Virus record (IMG/VR): IMGVR_UViG_3300038393_000202
Location: 1 to 24,030 of that record
Direction: 5' to 3' (one strand)
Length of the DNA: 24,030 nucleotides
From: a virus
Lineage: Duplodnaviria; Caudoviricetes
The notes under the pieces are model-generated. The model saw only the letters and a list, made by a program, of their open reading frames with translations. It did no database searches and had not been told where the DNA came from. How positions within the stretch are numbered: position 1 is the stretch's first letter; every line of letters begins with the position of its first letter. The translations under genes were made by a program, and so were the position numbers. This document shows positions 3,183 through 14,599 of the stretch, one piece after another.

Positions 3183-6100
3183 CTATACGCGCACCGCTTG
3201 TTGCAATCCGCTGAACAACCGCACAACCTGCCGCTCGATGGTCCCATCGGGCAGGCGAACGTCTACCGTGCCGTAGAACTGCATGGCAGACAACCCGCGT
3301 TGAATCGCCCCGACGAGAGCGCCCATGTCCCACGACGGCATCGACGGCGACGAGCGCATGACGGTTGCCAGCGCCTCCGAGAGCATCGGCACGGCGTACC
3401 GGCGAGGTAGCACCATCTCGTCGTCACCCGCTTCGGCGAGGATGGAGAGGTAGCCGCCACTACGCGCCTTGGCGAATCCGCCTTCCGCCATCATGTTGAT
3501 GCGACCGTTACCTCCACCACCGCCGCCGCCCGAAGGTACAGGCACGGGCGGTAGCGTGACGGTCTTGCCAGCGGTGCCCATGCCACTGAGAGCGGAGTTA
3601 ACCGCGTTGATGGCAGACTGCAACGACGGCAGACCCGCGTTGATGCCGCTGACGATGTTGCCGATGAGCGACGACGCCTTCTTGTAGAACTCAGGGTCGA
3701 GTGCCGCCATCTTCGCCAACTGACCGACGACCTTCTCGTCAACGCCCTTCAACGCTTCGTCGATGGCGGCAGAGGACTCCTCCAAGTCCTTCTTGTTGTC
3801 CTCAAGCGCGGTCTTGCGAGCCTCCATCTCCGACTTGATGTAGGTGAGTAGCGCCTGTAACGCCTCGGTCATGACGCGTTGTTGCTCCTGCAACGCCTCC
3901 TGCTCGGCCTGCAACTTCTCCTTGCGGAGTTCAGCCTCCTTGCGAGCGGCGTCCATCTGGTCTTGGATGGACTCGCGTGCGTCCTGCTTGTCCCACTCGC
4001 GGCGTTGTTCCGCCCACGTCTGCTCCTCCTCCGCAACCTGCTTCCGCAGAGCGGCGAGTTCGAACGGGTCGGTCGTCCACACCATCTGGTCGTGCAGAGC
4101 CTTCAACCGCTTGGTGTGCTCATCGGTTGACTTCTGACGCTCGTCCTGCTTGTCCTGTGCGTCGAGAGCGTCAAGTTGGACCTGCAACGCCGCCAACTTC
4201 GTCTCCAACTCGCGGTCGATGCTCTTGAGTTCGTTGGCGATAGCCTTGAGGCGGTCCTCGGTGGCATCACCAACAGCCTCCAAGTACCCTTCGGCGTTGA
4301 ACGCGAACGACTTGAGCATGGCAAGGTCGGACTTCATCAATGAGGCGAACGCCGCGGGGTCGAGGTCGCCAAGGTCGACGTTCTTGAACGCGGCGAGTGC
4401 ATCGTTGATGAGCGACTGCACACCGCCCATCGACGGCATGGTGGCACCAGTGGGTAGCCCCTGCAAAGCACCGAACGCCTTCTCAAGCGCGTGACGTGCA
4501 TCACCGCGACTGTCACCGCGACCGGCTTCGTCGTAGAGGGTGAGTACGTCTTCGAGCAACTTCACCTGCGCGGCGATGTCCGACTTCTTCTTCTCCAGCG
4601 CCGACGTGATGCGGGAGGTCCACAACTCCTTGAACGCCTTCGCCTGCTCGTCGTTGAGAGCCTTCGTCGCAGATGCCGCCGCGCCCGTCGTGCGGTCCAA
4701 CTGCTCTAGGGCGAAGATGTAGGCGTCAAGGATGATGGTGCCGTCGTCGTACATCTGCTTGAGGTCGTCGAGGCTCTTTGTCAACTGGCGCGTGGCGGCA
4801 TTGTCCTCGCGGGCGAGGTCTGACTTCTCCTTCTGGATGCGTAGCCACTCGGCGGAGTTGCCGCCTGACGTGGCGAGCATCTTCTCCATAGCCGCACCAA
4901 GGTCAGCGTACGCCTTCTTGCCTTCCTCTGACGAGGTGTTGACCTTCGACTGCGCTTCTGCAAGTGCGGTGTAGGCGGCACGGGCGGATTCCGCCTGCTC
5001 GTGGAGTACCGCCTGCTTGTCGGAGAGCAATCCCGCCAGCGCCGCCCGCTCTGTATCAGCCTGCAACAACTCCTCGGTACTCGCACCCTCGCGGGTCAGG
5101 TACGCGATGCGCTCCTTGCGGATGGCGATGTCGCGCTCGATGGCGTCAGAACGGCGACCGATGGCGTCCGTCTCAGCGGTGATGTTGTCAACGATGGTGG
5201 CGATTTTACCCTTGCCGTCATCACCAGTTCCGAACTGACCGGCACCATCACCAGCGCCAGAGCCAGAACCACCGCCACCGTTGAGCTTGTCGAGTTCCGC
5301 GTAGAGGTCAGCGAGGAGCTTCTGCCGCTCAATCTTGCGCTTGTCGAGGATGGACTTCACCGCGCCGTTCATGCGGTCTTCGCTCTCGATGGCGGCGAGG
5401 TAGTGTTGAGCGGCAGACTGCATGTAGCCGTCCGACAGGCTCTTGAGGTCGTCACCCATCCCCTTGAGGAACGGCACCTTGCCAATCGTCTCACCCAAGG
5501 AGGCTGTAAACTTACCAGAGGACTCGAACATCCACCCAAGGAAGTTGTGCCACGCCTTCTTCATCGTCTCAATCACGCCGGTCCACCCAAGGGAGAGCAT
5601 GTCGAAGAACGTGAAGTCTTTCCACCAAGCGGCGTGCATGACATACAGTTCCTTGAGGGACTTCTTGACCTCCTCGATTTGGTCACGGAGAGCCTGCTTG
5701 TAGTCGGCGGTCTGCTTGTCGATCTCGGCGCGCAGGCTCTTGGTCTTCTCCTTCTCGGCGTTGACAACGGTATCAACCGCGTCTTCCGCGAAGTGCGCGT
5801 TCTCCAAGCGAGCGGCAGTTTCCTCGCCAAGTGCGTCCGTCACTTGTTGGATGACCTGCGCCTGCTTGTCCGCCGCACGAGTAACCCCATCAGGGTCGTC
5901 ACCCGCGAGAGCATCTTGCCGCGCCTTCTCCAACGCACGCCACTCGTCAGCGTGCTTCTTGATCGCAAGCACGTTGTCGGCGTGAACCTTTGCCTGCGCT
6001 TCGAGCGAACGGATGGAGCCGTCCATTTCCGACTGCAACTGCGCAAAGGTGTTCTGTAGGCGGTTGACGTTCTTGTCCATGACGTAGATGGCACCGCCGA

Positions 6101-8252
6101 CGATGGCGAGAAGTGCGAGGATGCCCGCGAACTCCACGGCAGACCCGCCCTTAAGAGCGGCGGCAAGCCCACCCGCATCGCGCATAGCTTGAATCTGCTT
6201 GCGCACGCCCATCAGAGACTCAGCCAACCCAAGACCAACCGTGTACTTCATCGCCATGTTCAGAGCGCCGACGCTACCCATCAGCAGACCCGTCGCAATT
6301 GCCGCCTTCCGAAGAGTCGGAGGCAAGTCATTGAACCACTCCACCGCCGAGCGCCCCACATCGACTGCGGCCTTGAACGAGTCGAGCACGCCTCCATCCT
6401 CTGCGAGCGCGTACCCGAACTCTTGGAACGCCGCCTTCATCGACTCGACCTTCTTCGAGGCAGTCTGCATGGTGCGCTCGTTCTCGCGCATCGAGTAGCC
6501 TAGCGCCTGCTCCTGCGTGTTGACGACCTCTTGGACCTGCGCGAAGTTCTTGAGGAGCGCGATGAAGTAGTTGCGGCGGTAGACACCAGCACCCGTCTGC
6601 ATGATGTCGCGCTTCTGAAGGTCCGTCCACTCCTCCAGCGTGCCGGTCGCATCTGCCATCGACTCCGAGAACATGCCCGCGAGGTCTGCCTGCTCCATCA
6701 TCGAGTCCTGCACATCGGTACTCAGACCGTCCCAATTCTTAGCGAGGTCCGAGATGATGTCGTAGACAGGACGCAACTTATCGGTAGCGGCGTCTGCAAA
6801 GGCGGGGATGCCGCTACCTTGCAACGTCTCCAAGAACTTGCCCTTCGACATGTAGGAGATGATGGAGTTAAGCGAATTTCCGACTTCCTTGCCAGAACGT
6901 CCAGAGGCGGTTTTCATCGCCGTCAGCAGACCAATCGTCTGCTCAAGGGTGATGTTGGCGTTTTTCGCCGCACCGGACGAGCGAAGAAGACCATCCACCA
7001 AGTCCTGTGATGTGACGGCGTACTGATCGGCGACGAGGTTAATCTTGTCGATGACGCCCGTGAGCTGGTCGGCTTGCAAACCCCACTGAGACATGATACC
7101 GATGAGCGACTGAGTGGCTTGCTCCGCATCAAGTTCAGCTGTGTTGAGAGCCAACAACGAGGCGCGAGTGAGTTCGATGCTCTGCTTCACGTCGTAACCA
7201 GCCTGCGCCCAACGGAGCATCACGTCATGGACATCTTGGAAGGAGAACCCGAACTCCTGTCCTAATTCAAAGATAGCCTTACGCATGTCTTCCAACTTGA
7301 ACAGCGGGTCTTCCATAACGCGCCCAAGTTCAATCATCTTCATCTCGATGGAAGAAACGTCGTCGATGCCAGCCCGTATCGCCTGCATACCACCGAATGC
7401 CACGGCCCCAGTAAATAGCCAATCCAACCTGCGATTCAGCATAGAACTGAAACGTCCACGCTGATCGGCGGCGAGAGTAGACACTTGCGCGGCAATCGCC
7501 TTTGTCTCCGCTTGGTTCGCCGCGACCTGCTTGACCTGCTCTGCGGTCAACTGCTTTCCGAGCGCAATCTGCTCCTGATATTCCTTCGTCTCTTGCCGCA
7601 AGACGGCAAGCCGGTCCTTGATAACGCCATCGCCGACGCGCTCCATTTTGATGCGCGACTGAATGGCGGCGAGTTGTGCCTCCAGTTGCGGAAGCGACGA
7701 CTCGGACGCGCCGCGCACCTTGTCAGCGGCGGCGGAATCGGCGGCTTGCTTCTTCGCTTCGGCGGCTAGTTGCTTGTCAACGGCGAGTCCGTGAGCAAGA
7801 CGCTCCGTTTCCCGTTGCGCGTCCTGCTTCGCCTTCTCTGCCCATGCCGCGTTGACTTCCTTGGCGGTTCGCGCCTCTTCGGTAGCGCGTTGCTTGTCCT
7901 GCGCCGCCTTCTGCGCCCACATCTGCTCACTTTGTTGGATGCGCTCCTTCTCGGCGTTTGCCATCTCGCGCTCTACGGCGAGACCGTGTTGCAAACGTTC
8001 CTTGTCGCGTGCCGCATCTTGCCGTGCCTTCTCTGCCCACATCGCTTGTGTCTGCTTAACAATCTTGGCATCCTGCGCGGCCTTCTGCTTCCACGCAGAC
8101 TCCATCTCCTTGGCGACACGAGCGGCTTCCTTGCCCTGCTTGTCAAGGTTGCGCACCTCGTCAGCAAGGTCTTTGACAGACTTCGCGGCAAGGGTTGTAT
8201 CGAGTTGAATCTTGCCGATAATCCGGGTTGACGCATCATCACGTTCAGGCAT
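3183..8252 (-). CDS. Tail tape measure protein, 1689 aa
   Basis: Very long Ala/Gln/Glu/Lys-rich helical protein with a TP901-like core (GYDVKQSIELTRASLLALNTAELD...INLVAD...SGRSGKEVGNSLNSI), hydrophobic segments and a C-terminal MAEGG..LAEAGDDEMVLP motif. G-rich RBS upstream. Confidence 0.93.
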   Translation of the reverse strand: MPERDDASTRIIGKIQLDTTLAAKSVKDLADEVRNLDKQGKEAARVAKEMESAWKQKAAQDAKIVKQTQAMWAEKARQDAARDKERLQHGLAVEREMANAEKERIQQSEQMWAQKAAQDKQRATEEARTAKEVNAAWAEKAKQDAQRETERLAHGLAVDKQLAAEAKKQAADSAAADKVRGASESSLPQLEAQLAAIQSRIKMERVGDGVIKDRLAVLRQETKEYQEQIALGKQLTAEQVKQVAANQAETKAIAAQVSTLAADQRGRFSSMLNRRLDWLFTGAVAFGGMQAIRAGIDDVSSIEMKMIELGRVMEDPLFKLEDMRKAIFELGQEFGFSFQDVHDVMLRWAQAGYDVKQSIELTRASLLALNTAELDAEQATQSLIGIMSQWGLQADQLTGVIDKINLVADQYAVTSQDLVDGLLRSSGAAKNANITLEQTIGLLTAMKTASGRSGKEVGNSLNSIISYMSKGKFLETLQGSGIPAFADAATDKLRPVYDIISDLAKNWDGLSTDVQDSMMEQADLAGMFSESMADATGTLEEWTDLQKRDIMQTGAGVYRRNYFIALLKNFAQVQEVVNTQEQALGYSMRENERTMQTASKKVESMKAAFQEFGYALAEDGGVLDSFKAAVDVGRSAVEWFNDLPPTLRKAAIATGLLMGSVGALNMAMKYTVGLGLAESLMGVRKQIQAMRDAGGLAAALKGGSAVEFAGILALLAIVGGAIYVMDKNVNRLQNTFAQLQSEMDGSIRSLEAQAKVHADNVLAIKKHADEWRALEKARQDALAGDDPDGVTRAADKQAQVIQQVTDALGEETAARLENAHFAEDAVDTVVNAEKEKTKSLRAEIDKQTADYKQALRDQIEEVKKSLKELYVMHAAWWKDFTFFDMLSLGWTGVIETMKKAWHNFLGWMFESSGKFTASLGETIGKVPFLKGMGDDLKSLSDGYMQSAAQHYLAAIESEDRMNGAVKSILDKRKIERQKLLADLYAELDKLNGGGGSGSGAGDGAGQFGTGDDGKGKIATIVDNITAETDAIGRRSDAIERDIAIRKERIAYLTREGASTEELLQADTERAALAGLLSDKQAVLHEQAESARAAYTALAEAQSKVNTSSEEGKKAYADLGAAMEKMLATSGGNSAEWLRIQKEKSDLAREDNAATRQLTKSLDDLKQMYDDGTIILDAYIFALEQLDRTTGAAASATKALNDEQAKAFKELWTSRITSALEKKKSDIAAQVKLLEDVLTLYDEAGRGDSRGDARHALEKAFGALQGLPTGATMPSMGGVQSLINDALAAFKNVDLGDLDPAAFASLMKSDLAMLKSFAFNAEGYLEAVGDATEDRLKAIANELKSIDRELETKLAALQVQLDALDAQDKQDERQKSTDEHTKRLKALHDQMVWTTDPFELAALRKQVAEEEQTWAEQRREWDKQDARESIQDQMDAARKEAELRKEKLQAEQEALQEQQRVMTEALQALLTYIKSEMEARKTALEDNKKDLEESSAAIDEALKGVDEKVVGQLAKMAALDPEFYKKASSLIGNIVSGINAGLPSLQSAINAVNSALSGMGTAGKTVTLPPVPVPSGGGGGGGNGRINMMAEGGFAKARSGGYLSILAEAGDDEMVLPRRYAVPMLSEALATVMRSSPSMPSWDMGALVGAIQRGLSAMQFYGTVDVRLPDGTIERQVVRLFSGLQQAVRV

Positions 8253-8267
8253 GTAAACACCCCCCCT

Positions 8268-8313
8268 ACAAAGCGAAGGAGTAGGTACTACCGTACCTAC
8301 TCCTTCGCTTTGT
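8268..8313. terminator. Perfect 21-bp inverted repeat (weak bidirectional terminator or RNA-processing stem)
   Basis: ACAAAGCGAAGGAGTAGGTAC (8268-8288), loop TACC, GTACCTACTCCTTCGCTTTGT (8293-8313). The hairpin is certain; its function is inferred. Confidence 0.6.
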
Positions 8314-8336
8314 GGGACTGCGCCTTAAGGCTCGCC

Positions 8337-8422
8337 GCCAAATAGAACCGCGCCTCGCCAGTCCTGTCCATCCCTGACCCCGCCATACCACGCCTTTGCC
8401 GTACCGCGCCTTGCCTCGCCTC
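8337..8422 (-). repeat. (NN-GGY)n pentamer array B, putative gapped guide RNA
   Basis: Minus strand GA-GGC GA-GGC AA-GGC GC-GGT AC-GGC AAA-GGC GT-GGT AT-GGC GG-GGT CA-GGG AT-GGA CA-GGA CT-GGC GA-GGC GC-GGT (8422-8347): 15 units, 12 GGY, one extra A. Then in-register TC-TAT TT-GGC. Confidence 0.9.
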
Positions 8423-8484
8423 GTTAGCCTATCTCCTCAGCGGTAGGAGGCTACCCTACCGGACTCCCCGAAGGGAGTTTCGAT
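8423..8484 (-). ncRNA. Type II hammerhead ribozyme HH2 with pseudoknot
   Basis: Minus strand ATC-GAAA-CTCCC-TTCG-GGGAG-TC^-CGGTAGG-GTAGCCT-CCTACCG-CTGAGGA-GAT-AGGCTAAC. Complete core (CUGANGA, GAAA, GUC), stems I-III, and loop I TAGCCT pairing with 3' AGGCTA. Predicted cut between 8462 and 8461. Confidence 0.9.
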
Positions 8485-8574
8485 GCCGCGCCAGACCGTG
8501 CCTTTCCATTCCCCGCCCATCCTGACCTTGCCAGACCATGCCCCGTCACGCCAAACCCCACCTTGCGGTGCGAC
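8485..8574 (-). repeat. (NN-GGY)n pentamer array A, putative gapped guide RNA
   Basis: Minus strand GT-CGC AC-CGC AA-GGT GG-GGT TT-GGC GT-GAC GG-GGC AT-GGT CT-GGC AA-GGT CA-GGA TG-GGC GG-GGA AT-GGA AA-GGC AC-GGT CT-GGC GC-GGC: 18 units in exact 5-nt register (12 GGY, 3 GGA, 2 CGC, 1 GAC). Confidence 0.9.
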
Positions 8575-8637
8575 GTTAGCCTATCTCTTCAGTCGTGGTC
8601 GGCCATCTCCACAAGACCGGATTACTCCGGTTTCGAC
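8575..8637 (-). ncRNA. Type II hammerhead ribozyme HH1 with pseudoknot
   Basis: Minus strand GTC-GAAA-CCGGA-GTAA-TCCGG-TC^-TTGTGG-AGATGGCCGA-CCACGA-CTGAAGA-GAT-AGGCTAAC. Complete core; stems differ from HH2 but still pair; loop I TGGCC pairs with 3' GGCTA. Begins immediately after the HNH stop. Predicted cut between 8615 and 8614. Confidence 0.88.
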
Positions 8638-8928
8638 TCAACCATTCCACACCAGTTCGCGCCAGTTCGGGGGGATGATTCCTTTCGCCAGCGCCGACGC
8701 GATCATCCCTCTGTGACGCTGGTCGTCGCGAAGTACGTGACACTTGTAGCAAAGAGTCCGAAGGTTCTTCAAAGAGTTGTCCGCATTCTTTCCGCTCTTG
8801 ATGTGGTCGATGTGGCACTCTTGGAGAGACTGCGGAGCTTGACAACGAACACACCGTCTCCCGTCGCACTCCCATACAATCCGCCTAAGTTCCCGCCACA
8901 CTTCTTTAGGAGGACGTTTCTTAGGCAC
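8638..8928 (-). CDS. HNH endonuclease (McrA-like zinc-binding), 96 aa
   Basis: DGRRCVRC...CHIDHIK...NSLKNLRTLCYKCH = CxxC-DH-N-CxxCH signature. GTG start at 8928 overlaps the end of the RAMP gene by 8 nt. Confidence 0.88.
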   Translation of the reverse strand: MPKKRPPKEVWRELRRIVWECDGRRCVRCQAPQSLQECHIDHIKSGKNADNSLKNLRTLCYKCHVLRDDQRHRGMIASALAKGIIPPNWRELVWNG

Positions 8929-9535
8929 CCCGCTTCGCCTTCTCCTCCTCGATTTCGAAGGACTCAACCACAAAGCGCCCAAATCCGATGCCACGACCAT
9001 CGCCAAGGCCAACGAGCCTTCCCGCATCGTGAATGACCGCTTGCATCTCGCCGCGACTAACAATCGTCACGTCCCAAACGATGGTGAAGGAGCATGACCA
9101 GCCAACAGAAGCGGCTACGCGATAGCGGACGTTGCGGCCCTTGGTGGCTTTGTTGACGACCCCTCTAACATCGAGGTACACGGGTTCATCGACGGTGTTA
9201 ATTAGGTCGGGGTAGATGTTGTCGGGTACGAATCGGTCAACGAGGATACGGTCATCCATTATTTGAAGCGTAGCCGCTACTAGGGACTGGATACTCCCCT
9301 TTCCCTTCTTAGTGTGCTTCGCCGCATCCCGCAAGCACCCGAAAGCGTAACTCGGCTCAAGATACAACTGCTTGTCCTTGGTCATCAGAACAGTGCGCTT
9401 CCACTCTTCTGGATCGTTGCCCGCTACCCCTGTGCGCTCCTTCTTCTCCAGAGGTAGCGCATCCGGGCCAAAGCGGTGCCAAAGAATCGGGCGTGTCCCA
9501 CGAATCGAAACCCGTGCCGTTGCGATGTTTCCCAT
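8921..9535 (-). CDS. Stand-alone RAMP/Cas7-like RNA-binding protein (Vipr-like), 204 aa
   Basis: N-terminal strand VSIRGTRPILWH, LYLEPSYAFGCLRDAA (resembles the RAMP P.IP.SSLKG.LR motif), and C-terminal glycine-rich loop AGRLVGLGDGRGIGFGRF. Strong GAGGAGG RBS. No other cas genes in the window. Confidence 0.78.
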   Translation of the reverse strand: MGNIATARVSIRGTRPILWHRFGPDALPLEKKERTGVAGNDPEEWKRTVLMTKDKQLYLEPSYAFGCLRDAAKHTKKGKGSIQSLVAATLQIMDDRILVDRFVPDNIYPDLINTVDEPVYLDVRGVVNKATKGRNVRYRVAASVGWSCSFTIVWDVTIVSRGEMQAVIHDAGRLVGLGDGRGIGFGRFVVESFEIEEEKAKRGA

Positions 9536-9583: not shown

Positions 9584-9612
9584 GTTATACACCATGTCGA
9601 TATCACTGTCAA
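9584..9612 (-). promoter_or_regulatory. sigma70/sigmaA promoter for the RAMP-HNH-ncRNA unit
   Basis: TTGACA (9612-9607), 17 nt, TATAAC (9589-9584). The -35 overlaps the HTH stop codon. Confidence 0.8.
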
Positions 9613-9794
9613 CCCTCTTCTTTAAGGACAGGCTTCTTCAACTCCGCCACGTCATCGGCGCGAAAGTGGTTCTCCTTGCTACCGACCATCTTGTATGCCT
9701 TGATTCCGCCGCTCTTGATAAGCCGTTGTAAAGTCGGACGTGAGATTCCCAACTCCTTCAACACCTGCGCCGTAGTCAACCATTCCTGTGACAC
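9609..9794 (-). CDS. Excisionase/MerR-like helix-turn-helix DNA-binding protein, 61 aa
   Basis: WLTTAQVLKELGISRPTLQRLIKSGGIKAYK..FRADDV pattern typical of HTH_17/excisionase proteins. GGAAGGGGGAG RBS before GTG. Confidence 0.85.
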   Translation of the reverse strand: MSQEWLTTAQVLKELGISRPTLQRLIKSGGIKAYKMVGSKENHFRADDVAELKKPVLKEEG

Positions 9795-9817: not shown

Positions 9818-9846
9818 AGTATAAGACAATTCATACACCATGTCAA
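9818..9846 (-). promoter_or_regulatory. sigma70/sigmaA promoter for the HTH gene
   Basis: TTGACA (9846-9841), 17 nt, TATACT (9823-9818). Confidence 0.8.
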
Positions 9847-9870: not shown

Positions 9871-9900
9871 TTGACTATCGTTGATACAGTATGATACAGT
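9871..9900 (+). promoter_or_regulatory. Possible divergent promoter for ORF 9956
   Basis: TTGACT (9871-9876), 18 nt, TACAGT (9895-9900) with TG at 9892-9893. Overlaps direct repeat TGATACAGT (9882-9890 and 9892-9900). Confidence 0.45.
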
Positions 9901-9955: not shown

Positions 9956-10372
9956 ATGGCTAGGAATCGTCGGTTCAAGTTGCCGGATACGCTGACGGAA
10001 AAGGACTGGAACACCCTGCTATCGGTCGCCGTTGATTACGCGATGTGCGAAAACATGGGAGCCTTCATGTCGCACGTCGAGTCCTTTACGTCTACAGTGT
10101 CCGTCATGTGCGGGTTGGAAAGTCCCGAAGTCGCCAACGGGCTAAAGACAACCGCGAAGTCATTCCTCAAGCAGATTGAAGACATCCAAACCGACATGAT
10201 GCTCGCGGCGGCTTCAGCTGGTATCGCCATAGGTAAGCGCGAGGGTCTGCGGGCTGGAATAAAGGCACTCGGCGATAGGTCAGCTAAGAACATGCTTCGA
10301 CTGCTCACGGCCATCACGAGCGACAGGGCCGCAGACAGCACACTCAAGAGCGTTAACAAGGTGACAGCATAG
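9956..10372 (+). CDS. Hypothetical helical protein, 138 aa
   Basis: GAGGAGG RBS at 9940-9946, ATG start, downstream hairpin. No recognised motif. Confidence 0.7.
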   Translation: MARNRRFKLPDTLTEKDWNTLLSVAVDYAMCENMGAFMSHVESFTSTVSVMCGLESPEVANGLKTTAKSFLKQIEDIQTDMMLAAASAGIAIGKREGLRAGIKALGDRSAKNMLRLLTAITSDRAADSTLKSVNKVTA

Positions 10373-10379
10373 AACGAGC

Positions 10380-10421
10380 GAGGCTAGAGGCGTAAGGGGT
10401 CCCCCCCGGTCCTCTAGCCTC
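10380..10421 (+). terminator. Hairpin after ORF 9956 (possible terminator)
   Basis: GAGGCTAGAGG (10380-10390) pairs with CCTCTAGCCTC (10411-10421). 20-nt loop and poor U tract. Confidence 0.4.
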
Positions 10422-10431
10422 ATGGTTTGGA

Positions 10432-10460
10432 TTGAACTTTCTATAGGTTCATGTTAATCT
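10432..10460 (+). promoter_or_regulatory. Possible promoter for the membrane protein gene
   Basis: TTGAAC, 17 nt, TAATCT with extended -10 TG (10452-10453), in an AT-rich spacer. Confidence 0.45.
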
Positions 10461-10484
10461 ACACTTGTAAAGGAGGGATTGGTT

Positions 10485-10835
10485 ATGGAATGGCGTTGCA
10501 CCCGTTGCGGGTCCGACCACATCAATCACAAGCCCAAGAGTGAAATGGGAACGATACCGCTCACAATCCTCATCGCTGGCGGGTTGACCGTTATCGCCTG
10601 GAAGGTGATAGGCGCGCTCACCAACGGCGGAATGTTGGAAGGCGCTATCCTCTTCTTCATGCTCTGCATCGTCACCGTGCCGTTGGTGCTCGTGATTGCT
10701 GTCGTCATCGCATCCGCCATCACCGGCGAGGGCAAGATGCACACCGCAACCTGCCACAACTGCGGCAACGAGTGGCATGAAAAAGGGGCGTGCCCGCCTA
10801 AGCAGACCGCCCCTTCTAGCCATCCATCACGTTGA
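10485..10835 (+). CDS. Small membrane protein with split zinc ribbon (CxxC-2TM-CxxC)
   Basis: AGGAGG (10471-10476) 8 nt before ATG 10485. CTRC, two hydrophobic stretches, then CHNC. Confidence 0.75.
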   Translation: MEWRCTRCGSDHINHKPKSEMGTIPLTILIAGGLTVIAWKVIGALTNGGMLEGAILFFMLCIVTVPLVLVIAVVIASAITGEGKMHTATCHNCGNEWHEKGACPPKQTAPSSHPSR

Positions 10836-11055
10836 ACTTGCCAGCGAACTTCATCACATCGTCGAGCGAGTCTGCCGAAAGGCTCTCCTCGACGGGCGGG
10901 GTGTTCGACTTCTTGCCGCCGCCCTTACCCACCATGCCGAACGCCCCGATCTTGAACATCCCCGCCTTGTCAGCGTAGAGGTTAATCTGCGGGATGGTCA
11001 GTCGCAGGATGTCGTCATGGCGCAAAGAGGTGTTGGCGACGAGGAACCCAATCAC
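10816..11055 (-). CDS. Tail assembly chaperone second ORF (gpT-like), probably a frameshift extension
   Basis: Follows the chaperone gene; DDILRLTIPQINLY motif. Frame is open upstream to 11163 and lies in the -1 frame across the upstream stop. Confidence 0.6.
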   Translation of the reverse strand: MIGFLVANTSLRHDDILRLTIPQINLYADKAGMFKIGAFGMVGKGGGKKSNTPPVEESLSADSLDDVMKFAGKFNVMDG

Positions 11056-11120
11056 ATCATCGAGTGTCCACGCCTCCCCCGACGCCTTTGCGTTGGGGGT
11101 TTCGTCTGAGGAAGCGGTGG

Positions 11121-11453
11121 TTAGCCCGATATTCCACCGATGGCCTTGAGGCAGTCTGTCACGTCAGCCGTCGTCCACCCGTCGTTCTGCACGTTGTCGA
11201 ACGTGACGGGTTCACCCTTGTCGGTGCGAACAGCTTTGCCGAGCCAGTGGACGAAGCGTTCCCGCCCTTCGCCAGCTTGCACGAGGTAAAGCGCGTTGTA
11301 CGCCCACAGGTACTCCTCGCCGAACGCAATCGCATCCGTGACGAGAAGGGGGAGCACCTTGTACGTTTGCCCCCCCGCCTCGAAGTCCTTCGCCCGCGCA
11401 AGCAACTTGTCTAAGTCAGTGTACTCGCGCTCGGGCTTACCCTTCGGTGCCAT
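11121..11453 (-). CDS. Tail assembly chaperone (gpG-like)
   Basis: 110 aa directly after the major tail gene, with AGGAGG RBS. Confidence 0.7.
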   Translation of the reverse strand: MAPKGKPEREYTDLDKLLARAKDFEAGGQTYKVLPLLVTDAIAFGEEYLWAYNALYLVQAGEGRERFVHWLGKAVRTDKGEPVTFDNVQNDGWTTADVTDCLKAIGGISG

Positions 11454-13969: not shown

Positions 13970-14599
13970 TTAGGCAACCCACGTCTCGCCCGAGTCGATG
14001 TCCATGAGCGTCAGGTTCCCGCCGTAAGCGGCACCCGTGTCTATACCCACCTTGTCCTCGCCGTACCACGGCTCCCACTTCATCTCACCGTGCAGATTCG
14101 GCGTCGGGGTATGTCCGAAGAACACCTTCTTGCCACGGTAATACTCGTAGAACTCACCGCGAATCCAACAGAGGATGCCTTCACCCTGATTCTCTAGCGG
14201 GTAATCCGCAAGGACGCCAGCGTGAACTAAGATGCAATCCGGTTCCTCGTGGTAGAGAGGTAGACTGTCAAGCCATTCCAACACATCCTGCGGAGGAAGA
14301 CCATCGAAGTCTCGAACGGTCGTCCTTCCGCCGTTGTGTTGCACCCAAAACGCGTGAGCGATTGGGTCACGACTCGCCTCAACAGGCATGGCGTCGTGGT
14401 TGCCCTTCAAGGCGATAGCCCCATCCGCAACGAGCGCCCGCACAATCTCCACCGTCGCCTTGCTGTCGGTGCCTCGGTCAACGTAGTCTCCAAGAAGGAA
14501 CAGCCTGTCCACCTTCGGCTCATAGCCCGCCTTGGCGAGCACTTGCAGAAGGCGATGCCCTTCGCCGTGAATGTCGCTAACCACTAAGCGTCTGCCCAT
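13970..14599 (-). CDS. PPP-family Ser/Thr protein phosphatase (metallophosphoesterase), 209 aa
   Basis: Motifs SDIHG, LGDYVDRG, KGNHD, VHAG, FGHTP, GIDTGAAYGGNLT. Start moved to ATG 14599 with G-rich RBS. Confidence 0.92.
   Translation of the reverse strand: MGRRLVVSDIHGEGHRLLQVLAKAGYEPKVDRLFLLGDYVDRGTDSKATVEIVRALVADGAIALKGNHDAMPVEASRDPIAHAFWVQHNGGRTTVRDFDGLPPQDVLEWLDSLPLYHEEPDCILVHAGVLADYPLENQGEGILCWIRGEFYEYYRGKKVFFGHTPTPNLHGEMKWEPWYGEDKVGIDTGAAYGGNLTLMDIDSGETWVA

Follow-up and report, generated by a model that had tools for sequence, protein, structure and literature searches.

A phage-borne Vipr-HNH cassette upstream of a tape measure gene is a candidate RNA-guided homing endonuclease

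We analysed a window of 24,030 nucleotides (nt) from a tailed phage (Caudoviricetes; positions 1 to 24,030 of IMG/VR record IMGVR_UViG_3300038393_000202). The window is a late region with terminase, portal, capsid and tail genes on the minus strand and, upstream of the gene for the tape measure protein (TMP), it carries a VIPR cassette, i.e. a vipr gene, an HNH nuclease gene and two guide arrays. Along the minus strand the order is a promoter-like site, a helix-turn-helix (HTH) gene, vipr, HNH, hammerhead-type core 1, array A, core 2, array B and a hairpin. We lean towards reading this cassette as an RNA-guided, free-standing homing endonuclease directed against the TMP gene of sister phages.

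The cassette lies in a block that is an insertion between the TMP gene and two small open reading frames (ORFs) upstream of it. The TMP gene (3183..8252, minus strand; 1689 amino acids; PF10145) is the downstream flank and would also be the target gene, while the upstream ORFs (10816..11453, minus strand) are called tail assembly chaperones by position and synteny only and gave no family match. From the end of the first chaperone ORF to the TMP start is 2,868 nt here, versus at most 430 nt in 28 of the 42 measurable loci among 72 TMP-family loci; the other 14 measurable loci carry inserts of other sizes. Within the block, vipr (8921..9535, minus strand) encodes a RAMP protein of 204 amino acids with a glycine-rich loop, and its stop is overlapped by the start of the HNH gene (8638..8928, minus strand; 96 amino acids; PF01844). 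The HNH gene is intact, stands between conserved phage genes and is absent from relatives at the same site.

By its sequence, this is a VIPR locus. A profile built from 24 relatives had a single PDB match, the SUSP1 Vipr structure 36pp (E = 1.3e-9, residues 8-192), and the top Foldseek matches of the 204-residue protein were Csm3/Cas7 (model predicted local distance difference test, pLDDT, 68). Besides this homology and fold, the locus has arrays beside vipr, guides that skip one base and an accessory gene, the HNH gene overlapping vipr. Set against the published text and legends, the HNH gene fits the nuclease types (III and V), and ribozyme arrays are listed for types I and V. Yoon et al. 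(10.64898/2026.04.26.720920) describe vrRNA arrays that adjoin vipr and hold about 9-16 GGY/NN repeats, a one-base skip aligned with the wobble position, ribozyme-spaced arrays in types I and V, HNH among the accessory proteins, and self matches that all fall under 80%. In the published VIPR work, which includes structures (10.64898/2026.04.26.720927), Vipr forms a polymer along the guide and reads two of every three bases of the DNA. The targets described comprise satellites, rival VIPR loci and prophages other than the carrier, with silencing of a satellite reported for the SUSP1 conflict (Lopez et al., 10.64898/2026.10.15.759431), and the nuclease types III and V are presented as host defence-island systems.

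Our locus shares with these systems the Vipr RAMP protein, GGY/NN guides, wobble-aligned one-base skip, accessory gene, hammerhead-spaced arrays, HNH and sub-80% self match; it differs in being one of a set of phage-borne Vipr-HNH cassettes with guides against homologues of their own flanking genes. A sequence-only reading of the window had deduced the gapped NNx code from the arrays and had seen in the skipped wobble base a guard against synonymous escape. Both deductions are correct, and since both are already published for VIPR (10.64898/2026.04.26.720920) the wobble-skipping code is not new here. The pairing with the DNA template strand that it proposed falls within a published VIPR property, pairing with either strand (same source). 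New here are a controlled family-wide flank test, cassette-free (empty) alleles at two sites and a binding model for Vipr and HNH. Literature searches turned up no account of VIPR homing or of guides aimed at flanking genes, although other journals or the VIPR data files could hold one.

Both arrays lie on the same strand as vipr, and several of their scaffolds are GGA/GGG or one-mismatch variants. Array A (8485..8574, minus strand) has 18 NN units; array B (8347..8422, minus strand) has 15, separated by GGN scaffolds, the first NN at 8422 and the last at 8351-8350, with a single 4-nt scaffold after unit 6. A pattern search for hammerhead features (CUGANGA, GAAA, UH and three stems) returned two cores, the only ones in the window. 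Core 1 (8583..8637, minus strand; predicted cut after 8615) runs GAAA, stem III, UC, stem I, CUGANGA, and core 2 (8431..8484, minus strand; predicted cut after 8462) sits between guide A and guide B. Their stems of 6/6/3 and 6/8/3 pairs differ in sequence between the two cores, and Rfam gave no hammerhead match for either. In both, stem II is open, and its 3-bp halves lie on either side of guide A, such that the released unit could close on itself. Cores of this type occur near Vipr in just 12 of 176 loci, one of which (L060) has seven.

Guide B has a near-match in the neighbouring TMP gene. Re-parsing the array and scanning both strands of the whole window bore out what the sequence-only reading had reported: the top one-base-skip site for array B is TMP codons 5-19 (8196..8240, minus strand, read from 8240 to 8196), 110 nt from the array and in frame, with 22/30 bases and 9/15 dinucleotides matching when codon position 3 is skipped. 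Window scores reached at most 17/30 with no skip and 18/30 with a skip of two, and in the 3′ half of the guide 6 of 7 units agree. The earlier binomial estimate, made by hand, was reproduced (3.8e-8 per site, 1.8e-3 per window), and the shuffling control it had called for gave scores of 22 or more anywhere in the window in 18 of 3000 trials when units were shuffled and in 5 of 3000 when bases were. Scored locally, the match has p = 0.066 over the whole window and, when only the 700 nt next to the cassette are considered, p = 0.0125. The match of array B to the TMP gene is real but modest by itself, and the weight for its interpretation is carried by the family data below.

Guide A has a weak near-match of its own at a conserved TMP motif beginning at codon 379 (7065..7118, minus strand), which is significant at the family level and not alone: 2867 of 3000 shuffles reached its best score in the window. 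When 54 distinct TMP genes are aligned, codon 379 is its top position (mean 19.9/36 versus a null of 15.3 ± 0.85; p = 2e-4), and guide B gives no family-level signal on that alignment. Both guides thus point at a TMP gene, one not in hand.

To place these matches in the wider family, we scanned the flanks of 176 loci, i.e. the window and 175 fetched loci with a Vipr homologue. They hold 264 guides (226 distinct), of which 174, 206 and 107 were tested in successive scans, the rest being dropped for short flanks; HNH lies directly downstream of Vipr in 145 of the 176 loci. In the scan of each guide against its own locus, 26 of 174 guides matched at p <= 0.02. Among the 107 guides with long flanks, 10 matched at p <= 0.01 in the first 600 nt and 1-3 did so in each of five bins farther out, while the controls gave none with a skip of 0, one with a skip of 2, and 1 and 1 against the flanks of other loci. 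Matches at p <= 0.05 within 700 nt were found for 33 of 168 guides in HNH loci versus 0 of 38 in the others; counted by Vipr cluster, flank matches occur in 30 of 89 with HNH versus 0 of 13 without (Fisher p = 0.008). These 33 near-flank matches fall on both sides and both strands at a median distance of 169 nt (30 of 33 within 350 nt). Their identities run from 53 to 83% (median 69%), with a single one of the 33 at 80% or above, and an 80% self threshold like that of the published controls would miss such sites. A wobble-aligned ORF is present at 30 of the 33, to which we give little weight, there being no null and GC-rich DNA being rich in shadow ORFs. The sequence-only reading left the closeness of array and site unexplained; the same closeness is seen repeatedly among the family's loci, and it points towards homing. 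Very similar cassettes adjoin many unrelated genes (portal, terminase, TMP and tail genes), and at one site occupancy is patchy, with Vipr or HNH in 3 of the 72 TMP-family loci. Another phage of the same TMP family (L016/L017) carries a cassette of Vipr, HNH and guide in the corresponding place between chaperone and TMP gene, but its guide is without a flank match. A divergent, AT-rich Vipr clade (L010-L012, L042-L048) lacks HNH, includes some very long multi-guide arrays and shows no flank matches.

At the sequence level, five guides at two sites in relatives have cassette-free alleles that fit them better than the carrier's own. At the first site, a core of ten units from the L026 guide is matched exactly 24 times in IMG/VR, each time in frame within a portal gene. 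Three of the loci concerned (L251, L259 and L264) are 88% identical to L026 in portal and 91-94% in terminase, and in these and L268, all of which lack Vipr and HNH, the distance from terminase end to site is 344-503 nt, compared with 2,133 nt in L026. These empty alleles match the L026 guide at 28-29/32 versus 25/32 for self, 20 of the bases matching by construction. Three other guides, which were not used to choose the loci, also fit cassette-free alleles better than self: 33/38 versus 22/38 for L025, 27/34 versus 23/34 for L159, and 22/26 versus 18/26 for L028. At the second site, the L113 guide matches four tail genes at 44, 43, 41 and 41 of 50 versus 33/50 for self, and those four genes directly follow their upstream gene. 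The carriers L025 and L026 also share a first stretch of 40 portal codons that is 48-63% identical in nucleotides to four relatives, which are themselves 82-93% alike in the three pairs compared; this foreign-looking 5′ tract resembles a co-converted tract and would fit conversion at the site. Some guides also fit another carrier's flank allele at the same position (L026/L159/L028, 29/32 versus 25/32 self; L158/L003, 28/36 versus 25/36), hinting at possible guide-swapping contests between occupied alleles.

The HNH protein is predicted to bind Vipr. Across 43 sequences, residues D41, H42 and H64 of its core and three of four cysteines do not vary, nor do residues of its C-terminal tail, and 109 of 145 match a stricter HNH motif pattern. 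A model of two Vipr copies with HNH scored 0.61 versus 0.02 for the best control; of the pairs used for calibration, 116 of 157 solved ones and 2 of 215 mismatched ones attain the score mark, which is roughly applicable here. Contact agreement between runs was at least 86%, and partner pLDDT at least 82. The modelled contact places tail residues 73-89 of HNH on Vipr residues 75-82 and 160-169, which supports binding of HNH to Vipr through the C-terminal tail.

The homing that we propose would proceed as follows. The hammerhead-type cores are predicted to release the guides; Vipr would polymerise on a guide and read DNA two bases in three, as in the published VIPR work; HNH would dock on Vipr through its tail; and the complex would cut the TMP gene of a co-infecting sister phage near the guide site. 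Repair from the carrier genome would then copy the cassette into the sister along with the resistant end of the carrier's gene, while the carrier would be spared by differences at codon positions 1-2 of its own site, 8/30 bases for guide B. Expression, cutting and homing are all inferred here, and we consider homing likely because the guides of related cassettes spell the neighbouring gene of cassette-free sister phages. Free-standing phage homing endonucleases are known to cut neighbouring genes of relatives while sparing a diverged self (PMC2988022, PMC13565253). The T4-like seg and mob genes, which act in intronless homing and marker exclusion, are the closest parallel as described (PMC2988022): a nuclease gene between conserved phage genes, a target hundreds of bases away in an adjacent gene, self spared by sequence difference and the flank co-converted. 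They differ in that their DNA is recognised by protein, whereas here specificity would lie in an exchangeable RNA guide carried by a distinct RAMP filament, and the HNH protein has only 96 amino acids. OMEGA systems (TnpB, IscB) likewise aim an RNA-guided nuclease at an element-free allele (PMC13565253); their guide, however, is contiguous and is the flank itself, the target being the empty junction, whereas the guide here is repeat-encoded, gapped and unlike the carrier's own flank, and the cassette has no transposase.

Extended to the family, the case for Vipr-HNH cassettes as widespread RNA-programmed homing endonucleases, in effect phage gene drives that move to another genomic position when they gain a fresh wobble-skipping guide directed at the gene next to it, with the HNH-loaded filament as a compact programmable nuclease, seems to us marginally favourable. 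If homing holds, VIPR would have a second job, selfish spread instead of silencing, and the near-identical cassettes scattered across phages of many phyla would be explained. It would also be the first nuclease-active VIPR, made of two proteins of 204 and 96 amino acids, and the origin of gapped guides would become testable, with guide, own allele and target allele comparable side by side.

Several observations weigh against homing, among them the outcome of the search for a target. No target fitting guide A or B better than self was found in IMG/VR patterns, TMP loci or TMP proteins. As exact gapped patterns in IMG/VR, the whole of guide B and its 5′ nine units had 0 matches; the 3′ nine units of guide B and the core of guide A had one match each, and both were rejected as lying outside any TMP gene. 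Across 72 TMP-family viral loci the top fits were 21/30 for guide B and 24/36 for guide A; among 120 TMP homologues the carrier's own N-terminus was the best fit to guide B, and guide A reached at most 25/36 versus 23/36 for self. TMP residues 1-60 searched against 1.84 billion representatives returned self only, and the guide B search had little power because this N-terminus has no relative there. Annotated phages held distant TMPs only, and a single-sequence tblastn of the phage collection gave no match to Vipr. The suggestion of the sequence-only reading that guide B targets a related phage's TMP gene while self is spared is supported by analogy with the two sites at which cassette-free relatives fit better than self, and by array A, which also spells a TMP motif; for array B itself, the better-than-self match that it anticipated did not emerge.

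The remaining difficulties concern the site of guide A, which lies about 1.1 kb inside the TMP gene, and the family data. No flank match was found for 135 of 168 guides in HNH loci, suggesting that many serve other targets, and the 13 clusters without HNH belong mostly to one divergent clade and include four loci where HNH may have been cut off, such that HNH and ancestry are confounded in the cluster test. In the four portal-group loci, 11 of 15 guides have no better-fitting allele; better-fitting alleles were also found in other carriers (L159, L028 and L003), and low-identity windows occur deeper in the portal gene too. A lone HNH domain may only nick DNA. Finally, the VIPR activity described in the published work is silencing, not cutting.

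The main rival to homing is exclusion of siblings without copying, in which a carrier would win co-infections because its complex cuts or blocks a sister's tail gene, and adjacency reflects linkage of the weapon to a resistant allele. It explains most of the same data; the short distance, the inexact match to self and the better fit of empty alleles follow from it equally well, and it suits carriers that can target one another. The presence of similar cassettes beside unrelated genes and their patchiness at the TMP site nonetheless point to mobility, and a foreign 5′ tract travelling with the cassette fits conversion. We regard exclusion as a serious but minority explanation, and one that can coexist with homing; a review holds that homing and competitor killing likely act together (PMC13565253).

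Plain silencing of a rival's TMP gene, with HNH as an independent selfish passenger, we find improbable. Silencing is the sole activity demonstrated in the published VIPR work, and Vipr and HNH identities are correlated only moderately (Mantel 0.35), as a passenger would allow; but HNH is present in 145 of 176 loci, its gene overlaps vipr in this locus and its conserved tail is predicted to bind Vipr, and silencing offers no reason for a target adjoining the cassette. It is more improbable still that guide B weakly binds its own TMP start and tunes tail gene expression: the own site is at a gene start, is the best fit found for guide B and agrees in 6 of 7 units of the 3′ half, yet near-matches in relatives lie anywhere in flanking genes and on either strand, empty alleles outfit self, and an active nuclease would harm self. 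Chance we consider scarcely credible. Its appeal is a window-wide p of just 0.002-0.066, depending on the score, and a true target not found; against it stand a match that is in frame and 110 nt away, a guide A that is TMP-like too and a family-wide pattern with negative controls.

Sequencing runs bearing on the locus (six others and the probable source) yielded identical pieces of the cassette, one contig spanning 7665-8288 unchanged, and no joint skipping the cassette was seen in them. In one run (X1), a TMP contig from a sister differs at 10 positions over 7995-8108 and ends at 8108, and contig depth there falls from about 10 to 5.7 over 8108-8124. This is a hint that a sister with a different TMP 5′ end may be present in that run.

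The remaining features of the inserted block flank the core of the cassette. Between array B and the TMP start lies a 24-bp inverted repeat (8265..8316; z = -10.6), possibly the 3′ boundary of guide B RNA; no U-tract terminator was found at it, and matches to Rfam microRNA families were below threshold and rejected. It stops just short of the TMP ribosome-binding site and could affect TMP expression. Upstream of vipr, the small HTH gene (9609..9794, minus strand; PF12728) was not found beside other Vipr loci, and a promoter-like site (9818..9846, minus strand), a consensus match only at 11/12 bases, faces the HTH gene, vipr, HNH and the arrays. Beyond it, ORF calling gave two opposite-strand ORFs (9956..10835, plus strand) of 138 and 118 amino acids, the latter with a hydrophobic middle, neither with a homologue in the fetched loci; a divergent promoter-like site (9871-9900) precedes them, and GC content of the block is 53% versus 60% for the window. 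Outside the block, a calcineurin-like phosphoesterase gene lies at 13970-14596 among the head-tail joining genes.

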